Source: Candidatus Adlerbacteria bacterium (GTDB lineage: Bacteria; Patescibacteriota; Minisyncoccia; Phycocordibacterales; SBAW01). Taken from it: a DNA stretch of 64,000 nt. The notes below the pieces were generated by a model. The model saw nothing but the letters and a program-made list of their open reading frames with translations, ran no database searches and was not told the origin of the DNA. How positions within the stretch are numbered: position 1 is the stretch's first letter; every line of letters begins with the position of its first letter. Made by a program: the position numbers and the translations under genes. The DNA lies in contig JAQBRA010000004.1 of assembly GCA_028286685.1 (NCBI GenBank), positions 12,898 through 76,897 on the forward strand, given 5' to 3'. Positions 7,387 to 62,787 of the stretch are shown one piece after another.

Positions 7387-8109
7387 CTAGAACCGAAAGT
7401 TGAGGCCTGCGCGAACGATATTTTCGCGCAGTTTGGTCGAGTAGTCGGCAGAATTGCCGCGACTGTCGGTCATGCTGCTTGAGCCGCCATTGAGATCGAT
7501 GTGTAGATATTCAATCTTGGCCGACCAGTCGTTGCCTATTGCCCATTCCACCCCGGCACCGAACGCCGGGCCGAAAGCCATGTGCTTTTCAGTCGTTGTC
7601 GACTGGTAGCCGCCGACCGAGAACCGATCGGTCACGGTCAGGCCTCCGTAGGCTATGCCGGCGGTGATGTAGGGCAGAAAGGAGCCCATGCTGTAGCCGA
7701 GACGTCCGCGGGTAGTGCCAAACCAGTGGGCCTCGGTATCGATATCGCTGGTCGCGGTAAAGATGCAGCCGGCGCATCGGTCGATCGAGCTGTTGCCCGA
7801 GAAGCCGGCCCAATTGAGATCGGTCTCGAAGCCCCATACGATGTTGCCCCGCATCCAGTTGGCGCCGGCTGTGATGCCGACCAGCGGCCCGTTGGTGCTG
7901 ATCGAATCGAGATCGAATCCTGTGGCCGTCTGCTTAGTATTGCCGAAGCCGTATCCGGCTGTGGCACCGATGTAGAAGCCTTCCCAGCGATCCCTGAAAG
8001 CCGCCGGTGCCGGCGATTTATACCCGGGTCCCACATCAGCCGCCTGAGCGGCCGAGAAGGGCAAACTACTTAAGGCCAGTGTGGCCAGAGCCAAAAAGCG
8101 AGTACGCAT
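7387..8109 (-). CDS. outer-membrane beta-barrel protein, Omp25/Omp31 (OmpA-like barrel) family
   Basis: Signal peptide ending AAQAAD, alternating amphipathic beta-strands, C-terminal …AGLNFRF with terminal Phe. Confidence 0.8.
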   Translation of the reverse strand: MRTRFLALATLALSSLPFSAAQAADVGPGYKSPAPAAFRDRWEGFYIGATAGYGFGNTKQTATGFDLDSISTNGPLVGITAGANWMRGNIVWGFETDLNWAGFSGNSSIDRCAGCIFTATSDIDTEAHWFGTTRGRLGYSMGSFLPYITAGIAYGGLTVTDRFSVGGYQSTTTEKHMAFGPAFGAGVEWAIGNDWSAKIEYLHIDLNGGSSSMTDSRGNSADYSTKLRENIVRAGLNFRF

Positions 8110-25297: not shown

Positions 25298-26083
25298 TTA
25301 GTGAGCGAGGACAAACGCGCGCGTTGCAGGGCCAAAGCGGCCGGCGGCCGGCATGATGCTATTGAGCGCTTGGAGCTTGGCGAGAGCCGCCTTAGTAGCG
25401 GGGCCGAAGTACGCGGTTTCGTTTCCGGCAGAGCCTCCGCCCGAGGCGGCCACGGCAAAGCCGTGCGTGTTGAGGTAGTGCTGGAGCGCGCGCACGTCCT
25501 CGCCGGTCATGCCGAGCTCGAGATCGCGGGAAAACGCAGAGGATGCCGCGGACGAGCCGGTTGCGGAAGCGGGGGCGGCAAGGGCGCTTGTCCCCGCCAC
25601 AGAGGCGCGCGTCAGGGGGCCAAAGTAACCGATCGCGGGCGCAATGCCTTTTGTCGCCTGGTACCGGGCAAGAGCCGCTTGCGTTGCGGGGCCGAAGTAG
25701 TCGGTCTCGTGCCCGGTTGATCCTGCGCCGCTCACTGCCACAGCAAAGCTGCTTGAGTTTAAAAATTGCTGGAGCCGGCGCACGTCCTCGCCCGTGCTGC
25801 CCAGCTGAAGGTCGCGGGAGAAGGGGAGCGAAGCAGTGGGAGTAGCAGCGCCCGGCTCAGTCCCGGAAATGACCACCGGCGTTTGGCGCATGAGTATGTT
25901 CCCGCCCGAGGTGTTGTCTGGGGATGTGGTAGCGGTTGGATTCGTAGAAGCCGCCGCTGCGGCGCAGCCGCCATAGAGAGACGCTCCGTACGCGCAGTTT
26001 CCATACGTGCTTGCGGCATGCACCCAAGGAGCGGCGCTGCATGCCAGAACGGCGAAAGCCGCCAGGAAAAGTTTGCTACGCAT
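25298..26083 (-). CDS. secreted protein with two tandem peptidoglycan-binding (PGBD, PF01471-like) repeats
   Basis: Sec signal peptide MRSKLFLAAFAVLACSAAPWVHAAS. Two ~72-aa repeats: FSRDLQLGSTGEDVRRLQQFLN…YFGPATQAALARYQ… and FSRDLELGMTGEDVRALQHYLN…YFGPATKAALAKLQ…. Confidence 0.75.
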   Translation of the reverse strand: MRSKLFLAAFAVLACSAAPWVHAASTYGNCAYGASLYGGCAAAAASTNPTATTSPDNTSGGNILMRQTPVVISGTEPGAATPTASLPFSRDLQLGSTGEDVRRLQQFLNSSSFAVAVSGAGSTGHETDYFGPATQAALARYQATKGIAPAIGYFGPLTRASVAGTSALAAPASATGSSAASSAFSRDLELGMTGEDVRALQHYLNTHGFAVAASGGGSAGNETAYFGPATKAALAKLQALNSIMPAAGRFGPATRAFVLAH

Positions 26084-26261
26084 GCTTGCCGCCGTAAGTG
26101 CTCTTTCCGTAGGATTGGCTATCTTGGGACAGTACCTTTCCCGGCAAAACCGCGCTTGCTGTATCGGTCATGCTTGCAAATTTCAATGCGACGGCGGCTG
26201 CGGCCATGCCGCCCAGCGCTCCCAGGAATTCTCCTCTGGTTATTTTCTTATCGCTATTCAT
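26076..26261 (-). CDS. small protein with a Tat/Sec-signal-like N-terminus (61 aa)
   Basis: …ITRGEFLGALGGMAAAAVALKFASM… Its stop overlaps the start of the PGBD gene (ATGCGTAG). Directly downstream of tatC. Confidence 0.45.
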   Translation of the reverse strand: MNSDKKITRGEFLGALGGMAAAAVALKFASMTDTASAVLPGKVLSQDSQSYGKSTYGGKHA

Positions 26262-26290: not shown

Positions 26291-27007
26291 TTAATTATAC
26301 ATTTTTTTCGCGAAAGCTATCCCCACTTCCGTGAGGAGCATAGCTGGAACGGATACGAGCATGAGCATCACAGGATCGGTCGTGGGGGTCAAAATTGCCA
26401 AGATAATGAGAATCCCCAGAAATACCAGGCGCCGCTGCCGGGCTAAGGCATACGGGTTAAGAATGCGGATATAGGAGAGCGCGATGATGATTATGGGGAG
26501 CTCCAGTACCAAGAATGAGACCGTCATGGTCATAAGGACGAAGCTGACGTAGCTTTCTGCGGTGAGCATGTAGGTCGTTCCGGGGACGACGAAGTGCGAC
26601 AGCGCCTCAAGGCTCATCGGAACCAGGTACCGGTAGGACAAAGCGATCGATGCGAGCCCCAGGATTCCTGCGGCCGCGACGAAAGCGTAAAAGAGGCTCC
26701 GTTTGCGCGCAGAGAGAGCCTCGCCGACAAAATGCGACAGCAGGGCGAGCCATACCGGCAAGGACACCACGAAGGCGCCCATAAAGGCAACCTTCATCTC
26801 AAACAGGAAAGGGCCGAGCGGCGAGAGGAACACCAAGGTCTTCCCATTAAGCGGCCGCAGGAGATACTGGAGCAAGAGAGTCTCGCCGTACAGGAGCAGC
26901 ACGGTGGCGCTTACTATAAAAAACAGCCCGCCCCCTAGCAGATACCGACGCAGCGCAAGCGCATGCTCCCAAAAGTTCAGAAGTTTAGCTTCGGACCCTG
27001 CGTCCAT
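26291..27007 (-). CDS. tatC: twin-arginine translocase subunit TatC
   Basis: 238 aa, six predicted transmembrane helices, TatC-like hydrophobicity pattern. Confidence 0.85.
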   Translation of the reverse strand: MDAGSEAKLLNFWEHALALRRYLLGGGLFFIVSATVLLLYGETLLLQYLLRPLNGKTLVFLSPLGPFLFEMKVAFMGAFVVSLPVWLALLSHFVGEALSARKRSLFYAFVAAAGILGLASIALSYRYLVPMSLEALSHFVVPGTTYMLTAESYVSFVLMTMTVSFLVLELPIIIIALSYIRILNPYALARQRRLVFLGILIILAILTPTTDPVMLMLVSVPAMLLTEVGIAFAKKMYN

Positions 27008-27184
27008 TTAAGATTTCTTGCCCGAGTCCTTGTCTTTGGATCCATCGGAAAAGCTGCTCTTGAGCTCCTTAAACGACTGCCCGATGCTCTTGGCAAGCCC
27101 GGGGAGCTTATCTTTGCCAAAGAAAAGGAGGAGCACAAAAAGGATGAGGATGATTTCCGGGGTGCCCAATCCAAATAGGTTCAT
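27008..27184 (-). CDS. tatA: twin-arginine translocase subunit TatA/E
   Basis: Manually translated 58 aa: MNLFGLGTPEIILILFVLLLFFGKDKLPGLAKSIGQSFKELKSS… (transmembrane helix, FG hinge, amphipathic helix). Below the 60-aa ORF-track cutoff. Abuts the tatC start. Confidence 0.75.
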   Translation of the reverse strand: MNLFGLGTPEIILILFVLLLFFGKDKLPGLAKSIGQSFKELKSSFSDGSKDKDSGKKS

Positions 27185-27233
27185 GGCATAAGTATACCCC
27201 CAAAAGGGGTATTGTTGTCCACCTTATCTGAAG

Positions 27234-27647
27234 TTGCCTATGGCGCTCCTGTATAATAAAACTCCTATGGCGCGACTACCAACACCTGGCAGCGACGAGG
27301 GTACGTGGGGGGATACCCTTAACGAATTCTTGTCAGTCGGGCACGATGCAGCGGGGCTCAATGCAGGTCCCTTGTCTGAAAACGTAAAATCCGCGGATTA
27401 CACGCTCGCGCCTGCAGATAGCGGCAAGCGCTTCGTGGCGGCTGCGGCTCTTACTATTACGGTCCCGACGGTCGGCACTTTGGGCAATGGGTTCGAGTGC
27501 GAGGTCGTCAACGACAGCGGCGGCTCGGTTACCCTTAACGGCCCCGGCTCGACCAACGTTACCCTGACCGACGGCGAGATCGCCACTATTCTTGAAGTAA
27601 ACGGAAAGCAGCGCGTCGCATTCGGCAGCAGCACGGTCATTTCCTAA
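27234..27647 (+). CDS. hypothetical Gly/Thr-rich beta-type protein, translationally coupled to the following gene
   Basis: 137 aa. 3-nt gap to the next ORF. Composition resembles a fibre or tail-tip protein. Confidence 0.5.
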   Translation: MPMALLYNKTPMARLPTPGSDEGTWGDTLNEFLSVGHDAAGLNAGPLSENVKSADYTLAPADSGKRFVAAAALTITVPTVGTLGNGFECEVVNDSGGSVTLNGPGSTNVTLTDGEIATILEVNGKQRVAFGSSTVIS

Positions 27648-27650
27648 CCT

Positions 27651-29945
27651 ATGCGCACTATCGCCGGAACCATAGCGGCGGGGGAGCTTCACAATCCCGT
27701 CTATACTCTAGATTTTGCGGGCGGCGTCAATACCGGCATCGTGTCTGTCGCGCGCAACGATGCGCTGGCATGCGCCACGTATTGGGACGCAAGTGGCGTC
27801 CTGCGTACCGCGGCGGCTAATGTGCTCCGCTTGGATCATGATCCTAAGACGGGGGAGAACCTGGGTGCGCTTATAGAGGAGAGCCGCATCAATCGCCTTC
27901 TTTACAGCAACGACTACAGTCAGGCCTGGTGGACCAAGACAAACAGCTCTTTGGGTACGGCTATCGCGGGGCCGGACGGCACCGCAGGGAGCTTCAGGCT
28001 CCTTTTAGACGATGCAACGAACGGCGACCACCTGCTTGCGTCGACTTCCGTGGCTATTACAGCGGGGCATATTATTTGCGCCACCCTTTTAATAAAGCCT
28101 AAGGAGCATGCTGTCGTGCGGGTGCGCATCGCAAATGCCGCAGGGACTAACTATGTGGAGGACTGGTTTGACTGCACTCGGCAGATATTCGGGATGCCGA
28201 CCGCGGGCGGTACCGGATGGGCCATGAGCGAACACTCGTACCGCGAGGGGCCGAACGGCTCTTTCATACTGTATTTCCGCGTTACGACGGCCACCGATAC
28301 GACCGCTGTGCTCTCCTTTGGAGGCGTGCCGTCGCTGGAGACGACGACCTTTGCGGGCAATGCTGCCTCGGGCATGTATTTCTTCCACGCCGAGCTGCAG
28401 TCCGGCTCGGGCATCAACCTGTGTCCCTCGCTTATTGTCACGACCGGCGCCGCGCGCACGCGCTTGGCGGACCGCGTCACGCATGCAATGTCGGTGGTCC
28501 CCGGATACGACGGCCCCCAAGGCAGTATGACGGTCAAATACCGCAACATCGTGCGGACCGCTTCTTCGCAGATCATTAACCTGGCGCTTTCGGGCAATAC
28601 CACAAAGGGTCAGGTAGGCCTGGTGCTGGCAGCCAACTCCAACCAGGCCGAGACGGCTATCCGCAACGCCTCCGACGCGGTAGCGACCGCTATAAACGCC
28701 CGGGCCGGGGTCTTTGATGATTGGAACGTGGCCGGCGTGTCCTGGGTCAGCGGCCGGCACGAGATGGCCCTCAACGGGGCGGCAGCCTCTCCCGGGCCGC
28801 TTTTAAGCGCCATCGTCCCTCCTTCAACCGGAGCGCCGACCGCCTACTTGGGCCATGCCCGCACGGCCGCTACCGATACTTTGATGCTCAACGGCTGGAT
28901 AGCCGCGATCAAGTATTGGATTATCCCGCTCACCACCTCCGGGCTGCGCCGCGAGACGTCGCGCCTGTTTAATTACAGCCAGATACCGGGCACCTTCCGC
29001 AACGGGGTCAATTGCGCGGGCCTCGAGTACACCTCGACCGCGCAGCCGGGGACGCACAATGTCGACTACTTCGACACGCGGCAGGCGAGCTTTAGCTACT
29101 ATGCAAGCAAGATCCCGGGCGGCGTGGTGCGCGTGCCGTACCGCTGGGATCGGGCGCAGCCTGCCTTGGGCGGCGCGCTCGACGAGGCGTATTGCGCGCT
29201 TCTGGACGCCGCCTGCGCGCAGGCCCATACCGCGGGCATGGAAGTCATCCTCGATTGCCACAATTACTCCCAGTATCGCGGCAGCCTCGGCGGGTCGTTC
29301 CGCATAGGGGCTGCGGACAACACGGTAACCGTGGCGCACTTTGTCGATTTTTACGACCGGATGGCGCAGCGGTATGCGGGTGTGGACGGCTTCCTCGGGT
29401 TTGACCTTATGAACGAGCCCGGGCTCGTCGACAAGTTTACCCATGCCCGCATGATGCAGCGGGCCATAGACGCGGTGCGCACGCACGACACCGACTGCTA
29501 CCTGTTTATCGAGGCGCCCTTTGCCACACCCACCACGACCTTCCCGTACGACAACCGCGCCTGCTACCTTAATGACCCGTCAAGCAAGCTGGTGTACTCG
29601 GCGCACCACTACTACGACAACCCGGCTTCAGGCGTGTATGCGGGCTCCTTTGCGGCAGAGTTGGCGTATCCGATGCGCGCCCGCGACCGTCTCGTGCCGT
29701 TCCTGCGCTACCTGCTGTCTAAGAACGCGCGTGGCCATATCGGGGAGACGGGCTTTCCGGCGACCGAGGAGTGGCCTGCAATCGCGTACAATTTTGCGGC
29801 GCTGTGCAAGCAAGCCAACCTCATGATGAGCTGGTGGCAGGCCGGCCGCGCCGTGTCGGGGACCGACCCCTTGAGCCTTGAGCCGGCCGATATCAATAGT
29901 CCCGTCGATCGCGTGCACTGGGCGACCATCTCGCATTTCCAATAA
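27651..29945 (+). CDS. large protein with a C-terminal glycoside hydrolase family 5 domain
   Basis: The C-terminal ~320 aa carry the GH5 signatures …ILDCHNY…, FDLMNEP (acid/base), HHYYD, IGETGFP (nucleophile). The N-terminal ~450 aa are beta-rich and unassigned. Confidence 0.7.
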   Translation: MRTIAGTIAAGELHNPVYTLDFAGGVNTGIVSVARNDALACATYWDASGVLRTAAANVLRLDHDPKTGENLGALIEESRINRLLYSNDYSQAWWTKTNSSLGTAIAGPDGTAGSFRLLLDDATNGDHLLASTSVAITAGHIICATLLIKPKEHAVVRVRIANAAGTNYVEDWFDCTRQIFGMPTAGGTGWAMSEHSYREGPNGSFILYFRVTTATDTTAVLSFGGVPSLETTTFAGNAASGMYFFHAELQSGSGINLCPSLIVTTGAARTRLADRVTHAMSVVPGYDGPQGSMTVKYRNIVRTASSQIINLALSGNTTKGQVGLVLAANSNQAETAIRNASDAVATAINARAGVFDDWNVAGVSWVSGRHEMALNGAAASPGPLLSAIVPPSTGAPTAYLGHARTAATDTLMLNGWIAAIKYWIIPLTTSGLRRETSRLFNYSQIPGTFRNGVNCAGLEYTSTAQPGTHNVDYFDTRQASFSYYASKIPGGVVRVPYRWDRAQPALGGALDEAYCALLDAACAQAHTAGMEVILDCHNYSQYRGSLGGSFRIGAADNTVTVAHFVDFYDRMAQRYAGVDGFLGFDLMNEPGLVDKFTHARMMQRAIDAVRTHDTDCYLFIEAPFATPTTTFPYDNRACYLNDPSSKLVYSAHHYYDNPASGVYAGSFAAELAYPMRARDRLVPFLRYLLSKNARGHIGETGFPATEEWPAIAYNFAALCKQANLMMSWWQAGRAVSGTDPLSLEPADINSPVDRVHWATISHFQ

Positions 29946-31669: not shown

Positions 31670-31719
31670 TAGCGGAAGCCTTCATGGTTCTTTTAGAGTG
31701 TAAAAGGTACGATAAGAGT

Positions 31720-32061
31720 ATGAAATTTTTAACGATTGGTTTCCTTGCTCTCGCCGCAGCAGTATTTGTATTTCCAGCAGGGGCAGAAGCGCGCCAGCAG
31801 TTTGGCGGCTTTGGCAGCATCAATATCAATAACAACATACCGTCTTACCAGAGCTATCCCAGCTACCCGGCCTACAACCCGGGCAACTCGTGCGGACGAC
31901 GCTGCGGCTCTTCCTATCAGTACCAGCAGCCAACTTACTACCAGTACCCTTCGTACTCGTACCAGTCTTCTTACTATCAGCCGATGTACTACCAGCCGTA
32001 CTCCTACTCTTATTCGTCTTCCTATTACTCGAGCAGCAACTCAAGCTGGTGGAGCTGGTAA
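31720..32061 (+). CDS. secreted Tyr/Ser/Gln/Pro-rich low-complexity protein
   Basis: Signal peptide MKFLTIGFLALAAAVFVFPAGAEA, then …SYPSYPAYNP…YQYQQPTYYQYPSYSYQSSYYQPMYYQPYSYSYSSSYYSSSNSSWWSW. Confidence 0.5.
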   Translation: MKFLTIGFLALAAAVFVFPAGAEARQQFGGFGSININNNIPSYQSYPSYPAYNPGNSCGRRCGSSYQYQQPTYYQYPSYSYQSSYYQPMYYQPYSYSYSSSYYSSSNSSWWSW

Positions 32062-33695: not shown

Positions 33696-33699
33696 TTTG

Positions 33700-33770
33700 T
33701 CGGGCCGCCGGGAATTGAACCCGGTCTACATGCACCCCATGCATGTGTACTGCCGGTATACTACGGCCCG
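33700..33770 (-). tRNA. tRNA-Pro (anticodon GGG)
   Basis: Hand-folded: acceptor CGGGCCG/CGGCCCG, D-stem GTAT/GTAC, anticodon stem CATGC/GCATG with loop ATGGGGT, T-arm CCGGG-TTCAATT-CCCGG. Confidence 0.8.
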
Positions 33771-33853
33771 TTTCTGTCTTCTAGCTTTACTACCATACCG
33801 TATTTTGGTACGTTTGTGCCAGCAGTTTAGTCCTTTGCAGTGGGAGAGACACA

Positions 33854-34126
33854 ATGGCCAATGGAGACCGGTGCGTCCACTGCGACCTGCAGGAGACACA
33901 GCACGACCATCCTTACTATGCCCCTGAAGGGGTAAGTCCTTGCGGCATGTTCGAAAGTCCCGTTAAGCACGAGAAAGAGTGCCCTATAATCGGGTGCAAT
34001 GGCGATTGCCAGGAGACTTTGGCCGAAAGGGCCTGGAAGGCCCAGGTGGCAGAGAACCGGCTCCGCAATTCCTGGTATATGGACCCCCGAACGGGAAATA
34101 TTGTCTTAGTCGACATGAGCGATTGA
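33854..34126 (+). CDS. hypothetical Cys/His-rich small protein
   Basis: CVHC…C…CPIIGCNGDC pattern. Downstream hairpin plus T-tract at 34186-34215. Confidence 0.45.
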   Translation: MANGDRCVHCDLQETQHDHPYYAPEGVSPCGMFESPVKHEKECPIIGCNGDCQETLAERAWKAQVAENRLRNSWYMDPRTGNIVLVDMSD

Positions 34127-34209
34127 GCAAAATCGCCAATTGAAATCACCACTCTCAAAATACGTTGTCAAATAAGGGGTTCTTGGCACAGCCAAGGCCC
34201 CGTTTATTT

Positions 34210-34241
34210 TTGTCAAGCAAAGTGCTTGCAGCCCTTGACAA
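34210..34241 (+). promoter_or_regulatory. inverted-repeat operator/promoter element upstream of the SLT-like gene
   Basis: TTGTCAAG-N16-CTTGACAA, a perfect 8-bp inverted repeat. The right half is a consensus -35 hexamer. Confidence 0.5.
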
Positions 34242-34353
34242 GAAAATGGTACTATGTTCTTAACCCCAGAGCTTTCGAGCCCTGGGGACTTTTCGTGCCT
34301 GGGTAGTCGCCTAGGCACTGTGCATTACTACATAACCCCACGCAACCTATTAC

Positions 34354-34800
34354 ATGCCTGTTATCGCTGGTTTCGCCATTGCGCTCTCTGCGGCCGTAAG
34401 CAACGGTGCCGCAGTTGCGCCTCAGACCCAACCGACGGTAGCTATAACGCTCCCGGCCGCCATGCCCCAGTCCCAGTCCGTCGAGCAGTACATCCGCGAG
34501 TACTTTTCCGACGAGCCTGTCATGATCGAGATAGCCAAGTGCGAATCGCGCTTCCGCCAGTACGGCCAGGACGGCCACGTGCTGCGCAACGGATCAGGCA
34601 GCTCTGCCGTGGGCGTCTTCCAGGTCATGGGCTCGATCCATGCCAAGTTCGCCGACGACAAGCTCGGCCTGGACATTTACAGCCTCCAGGGCAACGCCGC
34701 ATACGCCCGCTACTTGTACGACCGCGAGGGCACCATGCCGTGGGCCGCTTCGGCCGGCTGCTGGAACAAGTCCGGCAAGCTCCTTGCCCGCGCCCAATAA
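34354..34800 (+). CDS. secreted lytic-transglycosylase (SLT/lysozyme-like) domain protein
   Basis: Signal peptide. AKCES (catalytic Glu-Ser) followed by AVGVFQVM (GLMQ-like) and an AAYARYL motif. Confidence 0.55.
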   Translation: MPVIAGFAIALSAAVSNGAAVAPQTQPTVAITLPAAMPQSQSVEQYIREYFSDEPVMIEIAKCESRFRQYGQDGHVLRNGSGSSAVGVFQVMGSIHAKFADDKLGLDIYSLQGNAAYARYLYDREGTMPWAASAGCWNKSGKLLARAQ

Positions 34801-34835
34801 AACTTAAAATAGTGGGGAAGTGGTCCCCTAGCAAA

Positions 34836-34862
34836 ACCCGCCCAGATTGGGCGGGTTTTGTG
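34836..34862. terminator. bidirectional terminator
   Basis: caaaaCCCGCCCAgattGGGCGGGttttgtg. Confidence 0.65.
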
Positions 34863-34914
34863 TTGGATGAAGAAACAGAATCGCCCGAAAGGTCAGGCGA
34901 CCTGTCGGGCGATA

Positions 34915-35193
34915 TTAGTTTAGATGCCGCTTGCGTTCCTGGCTTTCTCTGAGGAGCGTGCGCATGGAGTCGACTTCTTCGGCCGTTAAGTCCAGCCGTT
35001 CGATATACAGGTCAGCTTGCTCGCGAGTAATTTTGTTCTCGTCAACCCAGCCATCGAGTATGCCCAGCAACGAGCACTTAACGAGCATTTCGGTTTTTTC
35101 TTCAGATAAGGCAAGAAGTCGCCCTTCCCCCACAATGCCTTTGACAGAAAGCTCTCTTATAAGAGCCATTATCTTTGGCGATAGCTGAACCAT
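34915..35193 (-). CDS. hypothetical protein
   Basis: ORF with the terminator downstream. Start chosen at MVQLSPKIMALI. Confidence 0.35.
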   Translation of the reverse strand: MVQLSPKIMALIRELSVKGIVGEGRLLALSEEKTEMLVKCSLLGILDGWVDENKITREQADLYIERLDLTAEEVDSMRTLLRESQERKRHLN

Positions 35194-35480
35194 CCTTGCT
35201 CTCCTCAAGGTAAGTAGAAAGAATCTATAAATCAAAATACCTGAAATATATAGAAAGTCAAGTAGGGAAGTGACTCCCCCAGCTTCCCGAGAAAATATCG
35301 GCAAGACCCCCCTGAGCCTTTAGTATCAACAGTTCTCGGTTAGGGGAGCTGGGCATCTCGGCTAGCCAGAGTAGCCATATAAAGCCCGCTGTAAGCCCGT
35401 ATAAGGCGGCGGGAGAGGCGGATAGATACAAGAGGACCCAAGGCCGGGCCCCCTCCAGCTTCTCCCTATATAAGGGACGC

Positions 35481-35660
35481 AAAAGATATATTGTGCGACA
35501 CATCTTGCACTGATTCCCGATCGAATACGGACCAGTCAAAATGTGAAACTTTTCCACGCCCCCACCCTGCTGGCGGCCCGGCTGAAAAAGTTTTGGATCG
35601 TCGCACGTTCTATCTCAGATAATTATGTTAAAAAACGGTCCGGAGACCCCTCCCCCGAAA
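35481..35660 (+). repeat. copy A of a paralogous ~180-bp non-coding segment (promoter/leader of the HEPN-like gene)
   Basis: Conserved blocks gatatattgtgcgac, tgattcccga, aaaatgtgaaactttt, cc.accc.gc…gcccgg, agttttgg.tc, gacccctcccccg shared with 38241-38425. Confidence 0.75.
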
Positions 35661-36236
35661 ATTGAGATTCAGGAGGGAAGTGCTATTATTTTAGACGTGA
35701 AGCATCAGGACCTGAGGGACAAAATTGATGGCGCTTTTCTCAAGAAAGAATACTTGGAGTCATTCCTCATGCAGAGTGCCTATTTTGAAGCGGTTCTCAA
35801 GTATTTCCTTGAGTTCGTGCATTTCAAGATTATCTATGCTGAAAATGAAAACAAAGAGCATAAGCTAGTAGATATTCTCCAGAATAAGGTCGGCCGCTAT
35901 TCCCTCTTTGAGGTGATAACGATGCTTCGGGATTCCGAAGAGGTTTCCAAATCGGAAGCAGACGAACTGAATAAGTACAGAGAGAAGCGCAATAAAGTTC
36001 TCCATTCTTTGTTCGACGAAATGATGGGCCGAGAAGAGTTCGAAGAAAACCTTAAAAAGGTTGTCGAGTCTGGAAAAGTTATCGCCGAAACTAAGTGGTT
36101 TAAGTCCTTAGTTGAAGGCGTTGAAGATCTCGAAAAGATGTACGAACGTGGAAGATTAAAGAAAGAAAACATGCCGCCTAAGCAAACTGAGCCTCAGAAA
36201 TCCGGAGAGCAGCCTCCTTCCCCTGCTATAAACTAA
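35625..36236 (+). CDS. hypothetical protein with a HEPN-like Rx4H motif
   Basis: AT-rich codon usage. …NKYREKRNKVLHSLFDEMMG… carries the R-x4-H motif; otherwise helical. Confidence 0.5.
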   Translation: MLKNGPETPPPKIEIQEGSAIILDVKHQDLRDKIDGAFLKKEYLESFLMQSAYFEAVLKYFLEFVHFKIIYAENENKEHKLVDILQNKVGRYSLFEVITMLRDSEEVSKSEADELNKYREKRNKVLHSLFDEMMGREEFEENLKKVVESGKVIAETKWFKSLVEGVEDLEKMYERGRLKKENMPPKQTEPQKSGEQPPSPAIN

Positions 36237-36282
36237 TTATGTATACTATCCGTATGTAACCCATAAGCCGTGCGCCACAACC

Positions 36283-36395
36283 ATCACCTTGCGACCAGAG
36301 TCCTGCTACGGGCTCTGATCACTCGCAAGGTGAGTCAGGGTTCCGTAGTGGGACTTTGGTATTAAAAACTAGACGTAGCAGATCACCTTGCGATG
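36283..36395 (+). promoter_or_regulatory. structured leader with a tripartite repeat overlapping the FkbM start codon
   Basis: atcaccttgcga (36283), inverted tcgcaaggtg (36323), and gatcaccttgcgATG (36381) overlapping the start codon. Alternative hairpins are possible. Confidence 0.45.
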
Positions 36396-37109
36396 TTCTC
36401 ACAACTTAAGAGGCGGGTAAGTATTACCCCCTCACCCTTTCCCATACCAGTGGACGGCATGTGGCTCTTCGGGGCCCTGCCCCAGCACATAAGGCACGGC
36501 TACGACGAGAAGAGCACGATTGCCTACTTCCGCCGCCATATTAAGCCTGCCACCGTGTTTATAGACATCGGAGCGAACTACGGCTACTTCACGGTCCTTG
36601 CAGGCAAGCTGGGGGCTACCGTAGAAACCTTCGAACCCGACAAGACTTCTTTCCGCAGAACCTCGTGGAATGTCCGCCTCAATGGCCTTTCCCGTAAAGT
36701 TACCCTGCATAACACCGCAGTGTCAGACACAAGCGGAGTTGCCACGTTCTATATCGACAAGCCCGGATCGGGACTCAATTCCCTGGTTCCAGGGGTTCTC
36801 AAGAATGCCAAGGAAACGCGCGTCACAATCGAGCCGTACGAGGGGTACTACGACTTCTGCAAGATAGACGTGGAGGGCGCGGAGCTTCAGGTCCTCAAAG
36901 GACTGCGCCATAAGGGGATTGTCGTAGCGGAGTTCTGCCCCTCGCGACTGGATGAGATGGGGCTGGGAGCCCGGACCTTTCTCCAGGAAGTGCGCACAAT
37001 GGGGTGGAAAGTCTACAGTATGGACGAAGTGGAGCTGACTGACCAAGAAGCTATCAACCTGGCCGCCCTAGAATATCGGGATACTATCAATCTTTTGCTT
37101 ATTCCCTAA
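36393..37109 (+). CDS. FkbM-family SAM-dependent methyltransferase
   Basis: FIDIGANYGYFTVLAG (FkbM/Methyltransf_21 glycine-rich motif) and …FCKIDVEGAELQVL…. Confidence 0.75.
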   Translation: MFSQLKRRVSITPSPFPIPVDGMWLFGALPQHIRHGYDEKSTIAYFRRHIKPATVFIDIGANYGYFTVLAGKLGATVETFEPDKTSFRRTSWNVRLNGLSRKVTLHNTAVSDTSGVATFYIDKPGSGLNSLVPGVLKNAKETRVTIEPYEGYYDFCKIDVEGAELQVLKGLRHKGIVVAEFCPSRLDEMGLGARTFLQEVRTMGWKVYSMDEVELTDQEAINLAALEYRDTINLLLIP

Positions 37110-37245
37110 GCCCCATGAAGCGCCACTGGTACCGCTCCTCAGCAGAGATACCGCCTGCCCTGCCCCGCTCTCCGGGGAGACGGGGGCCAGGAAAGAAGAC
37201 GATCATCCTGTGGGAGGAAGGGAGAGACGGTCCCCGAGCATACAA

Positions 37246-37272
37246 CAAGGCCCCCTAGTGGGGGCTTTTGTT
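37246..37272. terminator. bidirectional terminator between the FkbM and protease genes
   Basis: aaGGCCCCCtagtGGGGGCttttgtttt. Confidence 0.65.
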
Positions 37273-37839
37273 TTAACGGCGTCCCTTTTTGGATTTTCGA
37301 GGGTTAGCGGCGCGGTTTATTGCCCGTTTGGCCTTCTCCTCTTCAAACCTATTCCAGTTCTCCACCTCTCCAATAAAATCAAATTCATGCACGGACGGTA
37401 TGCGGAACGACGCTACAGTTTTTCCTCCTTTATTAGTCAGAGCAAAATCTCCTTGAGTGAGAATGTCCATTCCGACAATAACTTCAAAATCAGGCTGGTC
37501 GGTTAGGTTGGCTTGGATGACCCTCAGTTTCGGAAACTTTACCCTACCGTCACACATAGAAAGTTCCTCAATAACGAACACCGGGACGTCACTGACCTTT
37601 CCTGCGGCTGTGCTCGACTCAGTAAGTCCCACTGACTGTAAGCTCATTTCCTGCACGAGTTCGGCTGATACGAATGTATGTGTCGCGCCAGTATCGACAA
37701 GTGCCGGGTACACTTTAGAGGTACCGGAGTCGTTCGTTATTTGTACTGGAATGACGATGCGATTGGCCGGACCAGAGAACCGCATTGACCAAGCTTCATG
37801 GCGTTCCATTTTAGTAGATAGCGGTTCTAGGCGAGGCAA
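37273..37839 (-). CDS. retropepsin-like (clan AA) aspartic protease
   Basis: ALVDTGATHTFVS (DTGA catalytic motif) and a later hydrophobic-GMDIL flap-like segment. Confidence 0.65.
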   Translation of the reverse strand: MPRLEPLSTKMERHEAWSMRFSGPANRIVIPVQITNDSGTSKVYPALVDTGATHTFVSAELVQEMSLQSVGLTESSTAAGKVSDVPVFVIEELSMCDGRVKFPKLRVIQANLTDQPDFEVIVGMDILTQGDFALTNKGGKTVASFRIPSVHEFDFIGEVENWNRFEEEKAKRAINRAANPRKSKKGRR

Positions 37840-38059
37840 AAGAGGCCGTGTAGCTGTCTACTCCTGGCGATACCTCCTGTAGAGAAAAATTTCCACGGCC
37901 AAATTTCTCAACTGCAAAATCATACGCTTCTGCAAGTGTATTCTTTACTTCGAGAATCTGATCGTCTTTAAGGATTAGAGTTTTACCATTGTACTTAGCC
38001 ACCAATTCGTCTTGGTGATCCTTGTAAAATTGTAGCGCCAAGGCGTGGTTTGATGCCAT
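37811..38059 (-). CDS. DUF5678-like small protein, partner of the aspartic protease
   Basis: 82 aa. …AKYNGKTLILKDDQILEVKNTLAEAYDFAVEKFGRGNFSLQEV matches the DUF5678-type pattern. Overlaps the protease ORF by 29 nt. Confidence 0.5.
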   Translation of the reverse strand: MASNHALALQFYKDHQDELVAKYNGKTLILKDDQILEVKNTLAEAYDFAVEKFGRGNFSLQEVSPGVDSYTASFASPRTAIY

Positions 38060-38240
38060 GCCCTCACTATACCAAAACGCTTCGATATAGCTAGCACGAA
38101 TCCCCTGTTTTTAGCAGGGTAAAAAGTCCTTTAATATGGCTTCATTTTCCACCTCGCCCATAAGAGTATTGCTCCCCTCCCAAGAGGTATTTATTCAAAT
38201 AGCCGAGACGTACCTGCAGCATAGCCACTCCAGCGTTCGC

Positions 38241-38425
38241 AAAACGATATATTGTGCGACGTATATGCTATTGATTCCCGACCGGGTTGAGTCTGCTTAA
38301 AATGTGAAACTTTTAGAGTCCCTACCCCGCCGCCGCGCCCCGGAAGATAGTTTTGGGTCCGGTCTCAATTCCCTCCGCTCTTTTTATAAATTTTCTGCAA
38401 AATTTCTCCAAAAGACCCCTCCCCC
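38241..38425 (+). repeat. copy B of the paralogous non-coding segment, followed by a terminator
   Basis: ~70% identity to copy A across ~180 bp, including the homologue of the HEPN gene's 5' end but no ATG. Ends at terminator 38459-38485. Confidence 0.75.
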
Positions 38426-38458
38426 GTTTTTTCAAAATTTGGGTAGGGGACCTAATAA

Positions 38459-38485
38459 AAAAGCCGCGGCATGCCGCGGCTTTTG
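38459..38485. terminator. bidirectional terminator
   Basis: aaaaaaGCCGCGGCatGCCGCGGCttttgac. Confidence 0.7.
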
Positions 38486-38503
38486 ACTTTTTCGCCGAGG
38501 CTA

Positions 38504-38764
38504 TTAATTGAGCCTCTTTGGTTTAACGTCTGGATTGTCTTCCAAAACCTTTTCTTGCAGGTAGCCGGCGGGTACTATGCTGATCGATACAATCGATATC
38601 TTGCGCTTCTTGTATCGGTCGAGAAATTCTTCCGCTTCGCGCCATGCTGCTTTGGGGTCCGGATAGGCAGTTCCGACTTTTTTCATCTGCAGCAGCAAGT
38701 TGTCCTCGCTATATGTTTCAGTGAGAATTCCTTGCCACATCCCTAGATTTTCTGCGTCAGCCAC
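38504..38764 (-). CDS. hypothetical protein
   Basis: 86-aa ORF immediately upstream of the terminator. Confidence 0.35.
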   Translation of the reverse strand: MADAENLGMWQGILTETYSEDNLLLQMKKVGTAYPDPKAAWREAEEFLDRYKKRKISIVSISIVPAGYLQEKVLEDNPDVKPKRLN

Positions 38765-38837
38765 GAGACGCTCCCTTTGTTGGTTTGGTTATCTGTAAAT
38801 TACATTAACATAACAATACAAGTATGTCCAGAGTGCT

Positions 38838-39503
38838 ATGATGAAGAGGATGAGCTACGCAGACAAGATAGGCGCCCTCCTCTCCCCTGCTGAGCGGGCG
38901 GTTTTTATAAAGTTGAACACGCCACAGAAGGTGCAGGACTACTTGGACGCCATGCCACTTAACTTTGAGGTACGCGGCGAAGAAGGCATATACAGCCCAC
39001 GAGAGGTATTAAAGAAAAAGAAGGCCCAATGCATGGAAGGGGCGCTTTTAGCAGTAGCAGCGCTCGAGTACAACGGCCAGCGGGCCTACTTGCTTGATTT
39101 GCGCACGCCCGAGTACGATTACGATCATGTGGTCGCTTTGTTTAAGGTAGGCGGCCGGTGGGGCGCCATAAGCAAAACAAACCACCCGGTGCTGCGGTGG
39201 CGCGACCCGGTGTACACAAGCGTGCGCGAGCTCGCAGTCTCATACTTTCACGAGTACTTCCTTTTTAGCGGCGAGAAGACTCTTAAGTCGCACTCTGACG
39301 CATTCTCCCTGCACCCCTACCCACTTGAGCGGTGGCTCACTACAGAAGATGACTTGGATTGGCTGGCCACCGAGCTTGATAAAGCAAAGCACTTCCCTAT
39401 TGCATCACCCAAGGCGATGAAGTCGCTGCGTCGTGCGTCCAAGATCGAGCGCAAAGCGACCGAGATGGTCGAGTGGAAGGATCCGTCAAAAAAGAAAGCT
39501 TAA
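38838..39503 (+). CDS. hypothetical protein, possible transglutaminase-like/papain-fold Cys-His-Asp peptidase
   Basis: CMEGALLAVAALEYNG … DHVVALF … weak Cys/His/Asp arrangement. Confidence 0.4.
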   Translation: MMKRMSYADKIGALLSPAERAVFIKLNTPQKVQDYLDAMPLNFEVRGEEGIYSPREVLKKKKAQCMEGALLAVAALEYNGQRAYLLDLRTPEYDYDHVVALFKVGGRWGAISKTNHPVLRWRDPVYTSVRELAVSYFHEYFLFSGEKTLKSHSDAFSLHPYPLERWLTTEDDLDWLATELDKAKHFPIASPKAMKSLRRASKIERKATEMVEWKDPSKKKA

Positions 39504-61295: not shown

Positions 61296-62294
61296 TCAGT
61301 TAAGTGCCGAGACGACTGTCTCGTTGCGGCACTTATAAAGGTTGAACTTCTGCTCCAGCAGGTCGCCGACCGCGAGGTCGATCAGGTCTCCCATCGAGTC
61401 TTGCACCGGCTCGCGCCGCTGCGCACCCGCTTCGAGATTGATCAGCTGCGGCTTTACGTCACCGAAGTAACGCGTCAGCTGCAGACGGATGCCGTCCTGA
61501 ACGACCTGCTTTTTGACCGTGGTGGTTGCCACGATCCGTCCGCCCACCGAGTCTCCAACCGGAAACTCAACGAGTCGCATGTCGAGCCGCTGGGCGATTC
61601 GATTCTGCTCGTAGCCGGCAGTAAGCCCTGCGGCTCCGCCGTTGATGCCGCCGCCGGGCAGAAAGTCGGTTCCGGTGATCGAGCCCATAATCACGTAGCG
61701 CGCGGGGTACAAAGTCCCTTTGCGCAACGGTATGTTCTTAATCTGGACCGTCTGCGACTCCGTCTTGGGCGGCGTGTTGGTGGTGACCTTGAGCGTAGCC
61801 GGACGGGAGACCCCGTCTGGACCCTTGATCTCCTGGTTCGGGATGGTTGTTTCCGTCACCGAGCCTTCCTGAGTTCTTACATTCAGGACGGCAGGACGGC
61901 TGACGCCGTCGCCAACGAGCTCCTGGCCTGCTTTGGCCTGGAACCAGTCGAGCGTTCCCCGGTAAACCGGATCCAGCTCGACAAGCCTCACCCCGGTGCG
62001 ACCCAGGGAGGATATTGCCATATCGGCTCCACCTTGGGTATTGAAGGCGCCGGTGCCGTCGTTGCTGGAGTAGTTGGCTTTGCCGGTTTTATCGCCGCCG
62101 CCGACCACTCCGAACGCAACTTGGCGCTGAGCCTTGGTGAGATTGCGTGCAACGCACGCAAGCTTGCCTTCCGCCACCTTACCCGTAACTTCGGGCTCGG
62201 GGCCCTTGGGCAGCTGTACATTTTCCCCGAACGGGGCAACTGCGCAGCCAGCCAAGGATAGAGCCGCAATAAGTACGGCCACGATGCGATGCAT
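61296..62294 (-). CDS. lipoprotein, possibly CsgG-family (curli-type secretion channel)
   Basis: Lipobox LSLAGC. The C-terminal half (…IMGSITGTDFLPGGGINGGAAGLTAGYEQNRIAQRLDMRLVEF…GGRIVAT…) resembles the CsgG core by pattern. The ORF's N-terminal extension to 62441 is rejected. Confidence 0.45.
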   Translation of the reverse strand: MHRIVAVLIAALSLAGCAVAPFGENVQLPKGPEPEVTGKVAEGKLACVARNLTKAQRQVAFGVVGGGDKTGKANYSSNDGTGAFNTQGGADMAISSLGRTGVRLVELDPVYRGTLDWFQAKAGQELVGDGVSRPAVLNVRTQEGSVTETTIPNQEIKGPDGVSRPATLKVTTNTPPKTESQTVQIKNIPLRKGTLYPARYVIMGSITGTDFLPGGGINGGAAGLTAGYEQNRIAQRLDMRLVEFPVGDSVGGRIVATTTVKKQVVQDGIRLQLTRYFGDVKPQLINLEAGAQRREPVQDSMGDLIDLAVGDLLEQKFNLYKCRNETVVSALN

Positions 62295-62316
62295 GCCACT
62301 CACTCCTGGTTGGGCG

Positions 62317-62787
62317 CTACGGCGTCGACTTGGTGACAACACTGTCAGCCGAGTTGTAGACGCCGCCGGTGCCCTGCGTTGTTGCGTTTGATTTGGCGGT
62401 GCCCGACTGCGTAGCGTTGTTGGCGCTTTGCGTCGTGCCATTCGTCACAGCATTGCCGTTGCCGGTAATGATCGTGTCGTTTTGGCTGTAGTTGCCGATC
62501 ACCGTGTTATGGGACGCACTAAACGGGCCGGTGTAGGTGTATTGCTGCACCACATCGCCGTTGTAGACGGTAGAGCCGCCGGTTGAACCGGGAGCGCCAG
62601 TTATGATGCCATGACGATTCAGGTAGTCCTGATAGGCGTCATTGCGCAACAGACTCTTGTCGTAGGTGCTCGTTGGAGCCCACGTGCCGCTCCATTTCAG
62701 GGGCGCATTGTTAGGCGATTGGGCTTGCGCCGCAGTCGCCAGGAAGGCCAGGCAAAGCCCGACAATCCCGCTTATGAGCTTTGTCAT
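62317..62787 (-). CDS. secreted Asn/Gln/Thr/Gly-rich repeat protein (curlin-like composition)
   Basis: Signal peptide MTKLISGIVGLCLAFLATAAQAQ. Repeats such as TGNGNAVTNGTTQSANNATQSGTAKSNATTQGTGG. Confidence 0.45.
   Translation of the reverse strand: MTKLISGIVGLCLAFLATAAQAQSPNNAPLKWSGTWAPTSTYDKSLLRNDAYQDYLNRHGIITGAPGSTGGSTVYNGDVVQQYTYTGPFSASHNTVIGNYSQNDTIITGNGNAVTNGTTQSANNATQSGTAKSNATTQGTGGVYNSADSVVTKSTP

Follow-up and report, generated by a model that had tools for sequence, protein, structure and literature searches.

The pair of genes described here lies in a 64,000-nt stretch of the genome of a Candidatus Adlerbacteria bacterium (Patescibacteriota; contig JAQBRA010000004.1, positions 12,898 to 76,897 of the forward strand), referred to below as the window. 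Two open reading frames (ORFs) follow each other on the plus strand, one of 137 aa from a TTG start (27234-27647) and one of 764 aa (27651-29945). The gap between them is 3 nt, and the junction reads TAA-CCT-ATG. Divergent from the pair, on the minus strand, are genes for TatA and TatC (both of the system for twin-arginine translocation, Tat), a mini-protein and a wall-binding protein, which together with the pair form what we call the cassette. The same DNA was present in an independent short-read assembly (Logan SRR13312974, 4.9 kb). Since the identical order was found there (PG_binding_1, a 61-aa ORF, TatC, TatA, the small gene, the 764-aa gene and the next gene), the arrangement is not an assembly artefact, and the tight coupling of the two genes, claimed in an earlier note made from the letters alone, was confirmed. 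In the NCBI record, on a 192-kb contig, the 764-aa protein is named "MAG: endoglucanase [Candidatus Adlerbacteria bacterium]" (MAG, metagenome-assembled genome).

All of the more than 200 homologues of the small protein start at the residue that matches an ATG at 27267 (MARLPTPG...), and a TATAAT box at 27252-27257 falls within the extension that the TTG would add. The TTG start at 27234 was rejected on these grounds, and because of them the true product is most likely a 126-aa protein (27267-27647, plus strand), predicted to be translated from a nearly leaderless message. The box stands 9 nt before the ATG, a leaderless-type start that was recognized by consensus match only. The richness in Gly and Thr that had been noted for the small protein was found (13.5% and 11.1%, respectively); its length of 137 aa gave way to 126.

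The large protein: a fibre region joined to a GH5 domain

The large protein begins with the peptide MRTIAGTIAAGE (27651-27686), a proposed docking peptide of a type common to otherwise unrelated partners in cassettes of other genomes. It is followed by a phage-type fibre region (aa 16-436; 27696-28958) that matches phrog_5939, "tail protein", with an E value of 4.5e-28. Within this region lies a head-spike-fibre domain (aa 74-272; 27870-28466), which scored 63.4 bits against NCBIfam NF048003 (GTA_spike_fiber, "phage head spike fiber domain"; cut-off 36) and covered profile positions 1-181 of 182. Residues 39-281 align to residues 48-280 of Rcc01080, the head-spike fibre of the Rhodobacter capsulatus gene transfer agent (RcGTA; PDB 6TB9 chain F3, E 3e-16). 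With these three matches, the N-terminal 450 aa that had been left unassigned in the earlier note are no longer so.

Word-indexed searches with the whole protein, and with its first 450 aa, gave four proteins each, and it was an exhaustive HMMER search with the fibre region that revealed how common the domain is: 9,899 cluster representatives were found at E ≤ 1e-3, often with multiple copies per protein. In the phage collection, the region matched tail proteins of cyanophages, a Nostoc phage, and Rhizobium and Azospirillum phages, as well as unannotated ORFs of 181 Salinibacter phages; it was also present on 72 IMG/VR contigs. Its fusion to a GH5 domain is rare. Three other proteins have it (56, 51 and 42% identity), and no further fusions were found in a metagenome scan. 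All three of these full-length homologues are on phage-like contigs: one (L004) is flanked by a T7-type tail fibre gene, a small-terminase-like gene (Pfam DNA_Packaging_2) and a large terminase gene, and another (L002) comes immediately after an ORF assigned to PHROG "tail fiber". Small ORFs also lie upstream of the phage-borne homologues; considered as counterparts of the 126-aa protein, they were found not to be related to it.

The N-termini of the phage-borne homologues are unlike the cassette-type peptide. The closest of them (P0002, L002 4378-6681) begins MLGVGLSL..., an alternation of Leu and Gly that resembles the IALGLGLGL of RcGTA. This suggests that the L002 phage may use an RcGTA-type attachment, whereas the window protein carries the type seen in the cassettes.

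The C-terminal part of the large protein is a glycoside hydrolase family 5 (GH5) endoglucanase domain (aa 452-747; 29004-29891). Pfam PF00150 matched aa 492-732 with 97.8 bits (gathering cut-off 23.5), and the best solved relative, the endoglucanase 4EE9, aligned over aa 452-747 with an E value of 4.9e-45 and both catalytic glutamates in register. The acid/base is Glu589 in LMNEPG (codon 29415-29417) and the nucleophile is Glu699 in GHIGETG (29745-29747), both codons having been verified; in PDB 7P6G, the position of Glu589 is occupied by Gln (NQP). Glu589, Glu699, H652 and Y654 are invariant in four full-length homologues. The GH5 signatures reported for the C-terminus thus proved correct, and because both glutamates are retained, the enzyme looks active. 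In an AlphaFold2 (AF2) model of the full-length protein, weak as a whole with a mean predicted local distance difference test score (pLDDT) of 43.7, the GH5 part had alternating strands and helices at a pLDDT of 50-90, with gaps; the model was discarded for a fold search with the N-terminal part. Pfam detected the GH5 domain alone in the large protein, and no carbohydrate-binding module (CBM) family was matched.

The small protein and its Tat-linked cassette

The small protein has an N-terminal motif, MARLPTPGSDEGTWGDTLNEFL, followed by what is predicted to be a beta-sandwich of the phage tail-fibre/tailspike type. It had no sequence matches in Pfam, NCBIfam or PDB, and its family profile was likewise without a PDB relative. 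The family itself is well conserved: among 205 hits, the best 120 were 62-73% identical, 126-127 aa long and covered 89-99% of the query, identity was 57-73% across Patescibacteria, Planctomycetes and Alphaproteobacteria, and 34 columns were invariant in an alignment of 26 sequences. Searches of 50,697 phage records, 72,556 plasmids and 2.9 million viral contigs (IMG/VR) gave no full-length match. Viral matches were limited to the first ~30-44 residues; in Streptomyces phage BRock, it is the N-terminus of a collagen-like fibre that they match. In a set of viral contigs chosen solely for carrying the spike-fibre domain, three encode the core domain of the small protein (domain E about 1e-11). 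In L134, the core-domain gene is directly before the gene with the spike-fibre domain, which is the order of the module; in L095, one small ORF lies between the two; and in L108, they are about 5 kb apart. It follows that phage tail parts make up both genes of the module.

Genomic context was read in 17 loci with the small gene, comprising the window, 15 species genomes and Bradyrhizobium sediminis. At 13 of the 17, genes for TatA and TatC were no more than 8 kb from the small gene, mostly no more than 3 kb, and tatC was within 4 kb in 10 of the 15 species genomes with the full-length family. A protein ending in PG_binding_1, as matched by a custom hidden Markov model of the peptidoglycan-binding tails of the cassettes, was also present at 10 of the 17 loci. 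All 150 loci (1.38 Mb) of a control set gathered by the fibre domain were without tatC, but this set is largely viral and so a weak control. The survey included Adlerbacteria, Parcubacteria, Paceibacterota and Saccharibacteria-labelled MAGs, as well as two Planctomycetaceae, a Pirellulales MAG, Rhodoplanes elegans and B. sediminis. In a second Rhodoplanes genome (L024), the small gene is on a contig of 5.7 kb that has no tat genes.

In the window, tatA (27008-27184, minus strand) encodes a protein of 58 aa (Pfam TatA_B_E; NCBIfam tatAE, E 5.5e-12) and tatC (26291-27007, minus strand) one of 238 aa (Pfam TatC; TIGR00945, E 5.8e-24). The next gene (26076-26261, minus strand) encodes a 61-aa mini-protein with a Tat-like signal (KKITRGEFL), a hydrophobic region and the C-terminus YGKSTYGGKHA, and overlaps the start of the following gene by 8 nt. 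Such mini-proteins, of 50-75 aa, lie between tatC and the wall-binding gene of the cassettes and share one layout, in which a Tat-like n-region of the form [ST]-R-[KRGT]-x-F-L is followed by a hydrophobic stretch and, at the C-terminus, by the tail G-Y-G-x-x-x-Y-G-G-K, with R9, F12, L13, Y56 and G57 invariant in an alignment of ten. Against NCBIfam NF038009 ("Tat system-associated protein"), the relatives in other cassettes scored 28-67 bits (64-67 in Saccharibacteria), all under the cut-off of 100, and the cassette mini-proteins are related to this family but fall outside its curated limits.

The last gene of the operon (25298-26083, minus strand) encodes a wall-binding protein of 261 aa with a Sec-type signal (Kyte-Doolittle hydropathy, KD, of the N-terminus 2.51), the N-terminal Tyr-Gly motif STYGNCAYGASLYGG and two PG_binding_1 repeats, which correspond to an internal direct duplication of 224 nt at 70% identity (25311-25822). 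The wall-binding proteins at the other loci also have Sec-type signals and Tyr-Gly repeats at the mature N-terminus, and at many loci there are Ig-like repeats between the Tyr-Gly part and the C-terminal PG_binding_1. Between tatA and the small gene is a divergent control region of 82 nt (27185-27266, read from the letters), which includes the TATAAT box and a perfect 7-bp hairpin, ATACCCC-CAAAA-GGGGTAT (27194-27212), 10 nt upstream of the tatA start codon; the hairpin could be an operator or an RNA element.

The window TatC shared 46-51% identity with its cassette counterparts in Bradyrhizobium and Rhodoplanes and 32-36% with those of three Parcubacteria (L014, L015 and L017), and the cassette TatA proteins were 50-81% identical across phyla. 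Because the window TatC is nearer to the alphaproteobacterial than to the Parcubacteria copies, and because TatA is so similar across phyla, the cassette appears to move between phyla as a unit. In the non-CPR genomes (those outside the candidate phyla radiation), its surroundings are clearly mobile or foreign, with a relaxase, a TrwB-type coupling protein and a primase at L010, and an integrase at L013. On the closed chromosome of B. sediminis (L005; CP076136.1, 878851-899318), it is in foreign-looking DNA with a GC content of 0.48-0.59, together with Shedu (SduA_C), ORC/CDC6-like, SMC/AAA and MmeI genes, and in R. elegans (L025) it adjoins TIR-like genes. These last two settings look like defence or mobile islands.

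When the window TatC was compared by eye with those of L005, L012, L016, L025 and others, the subgroup to which it belongs had Ala, Ser or Val at a position (..LALRRYLL) where the cassette TatC of Parcubacteria and Saccharibacteria has Glu (..LSELRTYFF). This residue is probably the equivalent of Glu15 of E. coli TatC, a twin-arginine contact.

The large gene is the exchangeable member of the cassette. L012, a relative whose chromosomal surroundings are the same (cysS to one side, rplI to the other), has the cassette with a different partner gene, of 416 aa. In other genomes the large partner gene is 2-38 nt from the small gene, in either order, and its product varies by locus: most are GDSL/SGNH or SASA carbohydrate esterases, and some have no family match. 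The spike-fibre domain was found in none of the other 76 loci with the cassette or the motif. Despite their unrelated catalytic parts, the partners appear to begin alike, with MRTIAGTIAAG in the window and MRIHVGIIAAA, MWMRPGVIAAA, MWMHPGIIGS, MLHPGVIAGS, MRMHSGVIAAS, MRSHSGVIAAA and MLRGVAAITA elsewhere.

The first ~35 residues of the small protein belong to a wider family, M-[AP]-R-L-P-x-P-G-x-D-x-G-T-W-G-D-I-L-N-x-[FY]-L..., that heads dozens of Patescibacteria proteins of 119-1439 aa. Those scanned had pectate-lyase-type beta-helices, DUF5907 repeats, a BppL_N baseplate-protein motif, collagen repeats or CBM5/12, and look like tailspikes or tail fibres. TatC was within 4 kb in 15 of 61 motif-family species loci. 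Three loci in Saccharibacteria (L028, 8400-14320; L029; L034, 8719-11827) and one in a Levyibacteriota MAG (L069, 6820-11773) have the order tatA, tatC, mini-protein, fibre gene, except that L029 has no called ORF for the mini-protein; in L034, the stop of the mini-protein gene and the start of the fibre gene overlap. A divergent Tyr-Gly protein is present in the three Saccharibacteria, and a Caldilineaceae MAG (L051, 10001-13755) has the same gene set in a different order. The long fibres scanned had collagen repeats, CBM5/12, DUF5907 or a weak beta-helix match, and that of L034 was without a family match.

The surroundings of the module in the window are those of a cellular chromosome. Upstream are dnaB, cysS and corA, and downstream are ctp (an S41 protease), rplI and rpmA; the remainder of the 64 kb has mostly cell-division, wall-synthesis and translation genes. 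No phage structural genes were seen among ORFs of at least 90 aa across the 64 kb by inspection and partial Pfam scans, which were not exhaustive, in agreement with what had been noted before. At the module itself there are no tail tube, baseplate, portal or terminase neighbours, the flanks being cysS, corA, tatAC, ctp and rplI. No direct, inverted or att-like repeats flank the module, and it has no adjacent tRNA gene, the closest being more than 3.7 kb away. The GC content at third codon positions (GC3) of the small and large genes is 0.67-0.82, inside the range of the core genes; a foreign origin by composition was considered and rejected, as neither base composition nor GC3 sets the module apart.

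Several other features of the window were observed. Just downstream of rplI, a gene at 31684-32061 (plus strand) encodes a secreted protein of 125 aa that consists almost entirely of Tyr/Ser/Gln/Pro repeats (..SYQSYPSYPAYNPG..YQYQQPTYYQYPSYSYQSSYY..). Directly after a tRNA-Pro gene (33699-33770, minus strand), GC drops to about 0.51 over about 33700-39500. This stretch, possibly a tRNA-linked island, encodes a retropepsin-like aspartyl protease (37273-37839, minus strand), an FkbM-type methyltransferase (36393-37109) and a transglutaminase-like protein (38838-39503), and several of its ORFs have no matches. The Adlerbacteria lineage is usually thought to be without an outer membrane. The window encodes an outer-membrane beta-barrel protein (7387-8109, minus strand; Pfam OMP_b-brl, 65.6 bits) and a CsgG-like protein (61296-62441, minus strand; 28 bits), possibly through gene transfer from proteobacteria or as part of an unusual envelope.

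A possible exported spike and its alternatives

We propose that the module encodes a two-part spike of phage origin that was taken over by the cell, is exported by Tat and is held on the wall. Taken as a whole, we put this reading at a little below an even chance. In such a spike, the 126-aa protein would be a conserved base or adaptor that consists of the phage-fibre-type N-terminal motif and one beta-sandwich and oligomerizes, and the first dozen residues of the large partner would dock into it. The 764-aa protein would be the exchangeable working subunit, made up of the docking peptide, a lectin-like polysaccharide-binding region and a GH5 endo-beta-glucanase. The pair, divergently transcribed from the dedicated operon of tatA, tatC, mini-protein and wall-binding protein, would fold and assemble in the cytoplasm and leave in the folded state through the TatAC of the cassette, the most likely route because neither spike protein has a signal peptide. 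The mini-protein may act as a pilot, supplying the signal in trans and holding the cargo by its Tyr-Gly tail, while the wall-anchored protein may offer the same Tyr-Gly motif on the outside as the final docking site, so that the spike would be retained on the wall. There, the enzyme would attach to beta-glucan belonging to a host cell, a neighbour or a biofilm matrix and break it down. We are more confident that the cell has domesticated a phage spike carried on the cassette, and that this is no prophage gene, than we are of the export route.

A stronger form of the proposal is that the cassette may be a protein-display system in which a dedicated TatA-TatC exports signal-less, folded phage-type fibres and tailspike-like enzymes, the mini-protein ([ST]-R-[KRG]-x-F-L and a hydrophobic region) targets them in trans, and the cargo passes to the matching Tyr-Gly tip of the peptidoglycan-anchored stalk protein. 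We give this stronger form a minority chance, well below even.

A number of observations weigh against the proposal. Neither the small protein (MARLPTPG...) nor the large one (MRTIAGTIAAGE...) has a twin-arginine signal or a hydrophobic region: the highest hydropathy over 12 residues was 0.53 and 1.29, respectively, compared to 2.5-2.9 in secreted neighbours, signals having been called by KD hydropathy and reading of motifs. The mini-protein of the window has RG instead of RR in its motif and scored 20.8 bits against NF038009, where the cut-off is 100. One Parcubacteria locus (L017) has the small and tat genes with no adjacent partner, and two Peregrinibacteria loci (L021 and L023) have partners with no tat genes within 10 kb. 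In small genomes of the candidate phyla radiation (CPR), the neighbouring tatAC may simply be the sole Tat system, sited beside envelope genes. A strict form of the N-terminal motif was found in 7 of 14 partners and in 5 of 858 background ORFs, a background that includes the partners, and as this motif was chosen after seeing the data, it is descriptive only. The binding of the small to the large protein is read from their architecture, and the quality of the AF2 model, built from four aligned sequences, did not suffice to confirm the fibre fold.

The reading of the pair as a phage, tailocin or gene transfer agent (GTA) fibre, put forward in the earlier note, fared well as regards the homology of the large protein and the predicted fold of the small one; the window, however, has no phage, tailocin or GTA locus. 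With the small protein tied to a tatA-tatC cassette, a link absent from the earlier note, a spike encoded by the cell and probably exported becomes likelier than a virion fibre. The pair may still be part of a virion (either head spike or tail fibre plus adaptor) of a phage, GTA or tailocin encoded elsewhere, remaining in the cytoplasm until assembly and lysis. The Rcc01080 domain and the same small-then-large gene order point that way, as do the phage context of every full-length homologue, the lack of signal peptides on both proteins, and the phage contigs with both domain types nearby, adjacent in L134. Furthermore, rcc01079 and rcc01080 are likewise apart from the main RcGTA cluster, a precedent that makes this alternative a serious one, and our inspection spans 64 kb, about one third, of the 192-kb contig, which also counts against the proposed spike. 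We nevertheless consider a virion part improbable: no full-length member of the 126-aa family occurs in the phage records or viral contigs searched, the family sits beside tatA-tatC in cells, Tat is not known to take part in assembling virions, the 64 kb showed no structural phage gene, and the N-terminal peptide of the cassette differs from those of the phage homologues. Smaller still, indeed very slight, is the chance that the module is a decaying, functionless leftover of an old prophage. The phage ancestry of both genes and the isolated combination, with three other fibre-GH5 proteins, would fit such a remnant; both ORFs are intact, however, the catalytic residues are kept, the composition is like that of core genes, and the 57-73% identity of the small protein across phyla implies strong purifying selection.

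The remaining alternatives accept the enzyme and differ over its setting. The large protein may be an ordinary stand-alone glycanase with a phage-derived carbohydrate-binding region, released by an unrecognized route or by lysis, with the small and Tat genes as mere neighbours. Its GH5 domain is intact, the lectin-like spike-fibre region is one that in RcGTA binds polysaccharide, the NCBI annotation reads simply endoglucanase, and adjacency counts for less in gene-dense CPR genomes. The earlier note had pictured an ordinary secreted glycanase as having a CBM together with a classical signal peptide, and we found neither (no CBM family match, and a peak KD short of Sec-type values). The tightly coupled partner is kept beside the small gene in other phyla and in mobile DNA, and its N-terminal peptide is of a type common to partners with differing catalytic domains, so we give the stand-alone glycanase a low probability. 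Alternatively, the cassette may remodel the producer's own wall or capsule, with a glucanase here and deacetylases elsewhere, for example to help a mobile element or to alter phage receptors. This would be in keeping with the carbohydrate esterase partners (SGNH/GDSL or SASA) at other loci, the peptidoglycan-binding protein of the cassette, and the mobile or defence-island DNA around it in Bradyrhizobium, Rhodoplanes and Planctomycetes (relaxase, coupling protein, integrase, Shedu, MmeI). However, the PADLOC defence models gave no hits to six cassette proteins, and the fibre-type binding region and the phage homologues point to a foreign cell surface. Action on the producer's own envelope differs from the proposed spike in target alone; on balance, we think it unlikely.

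CPR bacteria (Patescibacteria) live attached to other cells, and few of their surface tools are known. A chromosomal, Tat-linked phage depolymerase module suggests how they might bind and digest the polysaccharide coat of a partner, and makes the transport of whole fibre assemblies by Tat a directly testable idea. With its constant base and swappable enzymes, the cassette also provides a catalogue of enzymes active on polysaccharides (GH5, SGNH and SASA esterases, beta-helix proteins), and it exemplifies how cells recruit viral parts and pass them across phyla. If the display system were true, there would be a viral-style surface spike in Patescibacteria and, by horizontal transfer, in some Planctomycetes, Chloroflexi and Alphaproteobacteria, and it would answer what purpose Tat serves in metabolically minimal bacteria. 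Surveys have found that CPR bacteria keep TatA and TatC, with no cargo named (PMC9166423). Our literature search found nothing on a link between Tat and fibres in CPR, and likewise nothing on NF038009.

Comparison with known systems

The closest counterpart is the head spike of RcGTA, in which a pentameric base of Rcc01079 holds one Rcc01080 fibre via residues 2-10 (IALGLGLGL), the rest of the fibre being flexible (PMC7296036), and in which the spike fibre binds capsular polysaccharide (PMC10218006). Like the RcGTA pair (Rcc01079/GhsA and Rcc01080/GhsB, 6TB9), the module has a small gene followed by a large one, away from structural genes, and its large protein has both the head-spike-fibre domain (NF048003; E 3e-16 to the RcGTA fibre) and a short N-terminal peptide of hydrophobic and small residues. 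There are considerable differences, however. No relationship of the small protein to the jellyroll base Rcc01079 was detected, the peptide MRTIAGTIAAG lacks the repeated (Ile/Leu)-Gly of IALGLGLGL, and the large protein has about 170 additional fibre-type residues and the GH5 enzyme. There are no capsid genes in the 64-kb window, and the linkage is to tatA-tatC and not to a GTA regulon.

The tailspike and tail-fibre depolymerases of phages (CBA120 TSP4, gp83 of Acinetobacter phage Solidus, T7-like gp17) also combine a conserved anchor with a variable head. A homologue of the large protein adjoins a T7-type fibre gene, and the cassette partners use the esterase and beta-helix domains typical of tailspikes, whereas GH5 is an unusual catalytic head for a tailspike. 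In the cassette, by contrast, the anchor and the enzyme are separate chains, encoded on a cellular chromosome with no virion. As an enzyme, the large protein resembles the GH5 endo-beta-1,4-glucanases (4EE9, 7P6G, 4LX4), to which its catalytic domain aligns from end to end with both glutamates and the His-x-Tyr. The solved enzymes are single domains of ~320 aa; the window protein adds a phage-type extension of 450 aa and a coupled partner and has no signal peptide.

In Bacillus subtilis, tatAd-tatCd is encoded with phoD, and a minimal TatA-TatC beside its presumed cargo is also what we see here. The known Tat cases are redox enzymes, or PhoD, with true twin-arginine signals; the presumed cargo in the window is a phage-type fibre. 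Tat exports folded hetero-oligomers with the signal on one partner only, such as E. coli PaoABC (PMC4273604, PMC10924467, PMC6708511). By such hitchhiker export, a signal-less cargo could ride with a signal-bearing partner, although the sole Tat-like signal of the cassettes is on a mini-protein of 50-75 aa and mostly has RK or RG in place of RR. The cassette mini-proteins, encoded directly after tatC, are relatives of the NF038009 family, but all of them fall below 100 bits, and the family is without a recorded function. We did not find described a cell-encoded cassette, hopping between phyla, in which a dedicated Tat system is combined with phage-type fibres and tailspike-like enzymes, and in which the base stays constant while the enzymes can be exchanged. 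Each part of it has a known relative: the GH5 enzymes, the head-spike-fibre domain, the anchor folds of tailspikes, TatAC and the family of Tat-associated mini-proteins.

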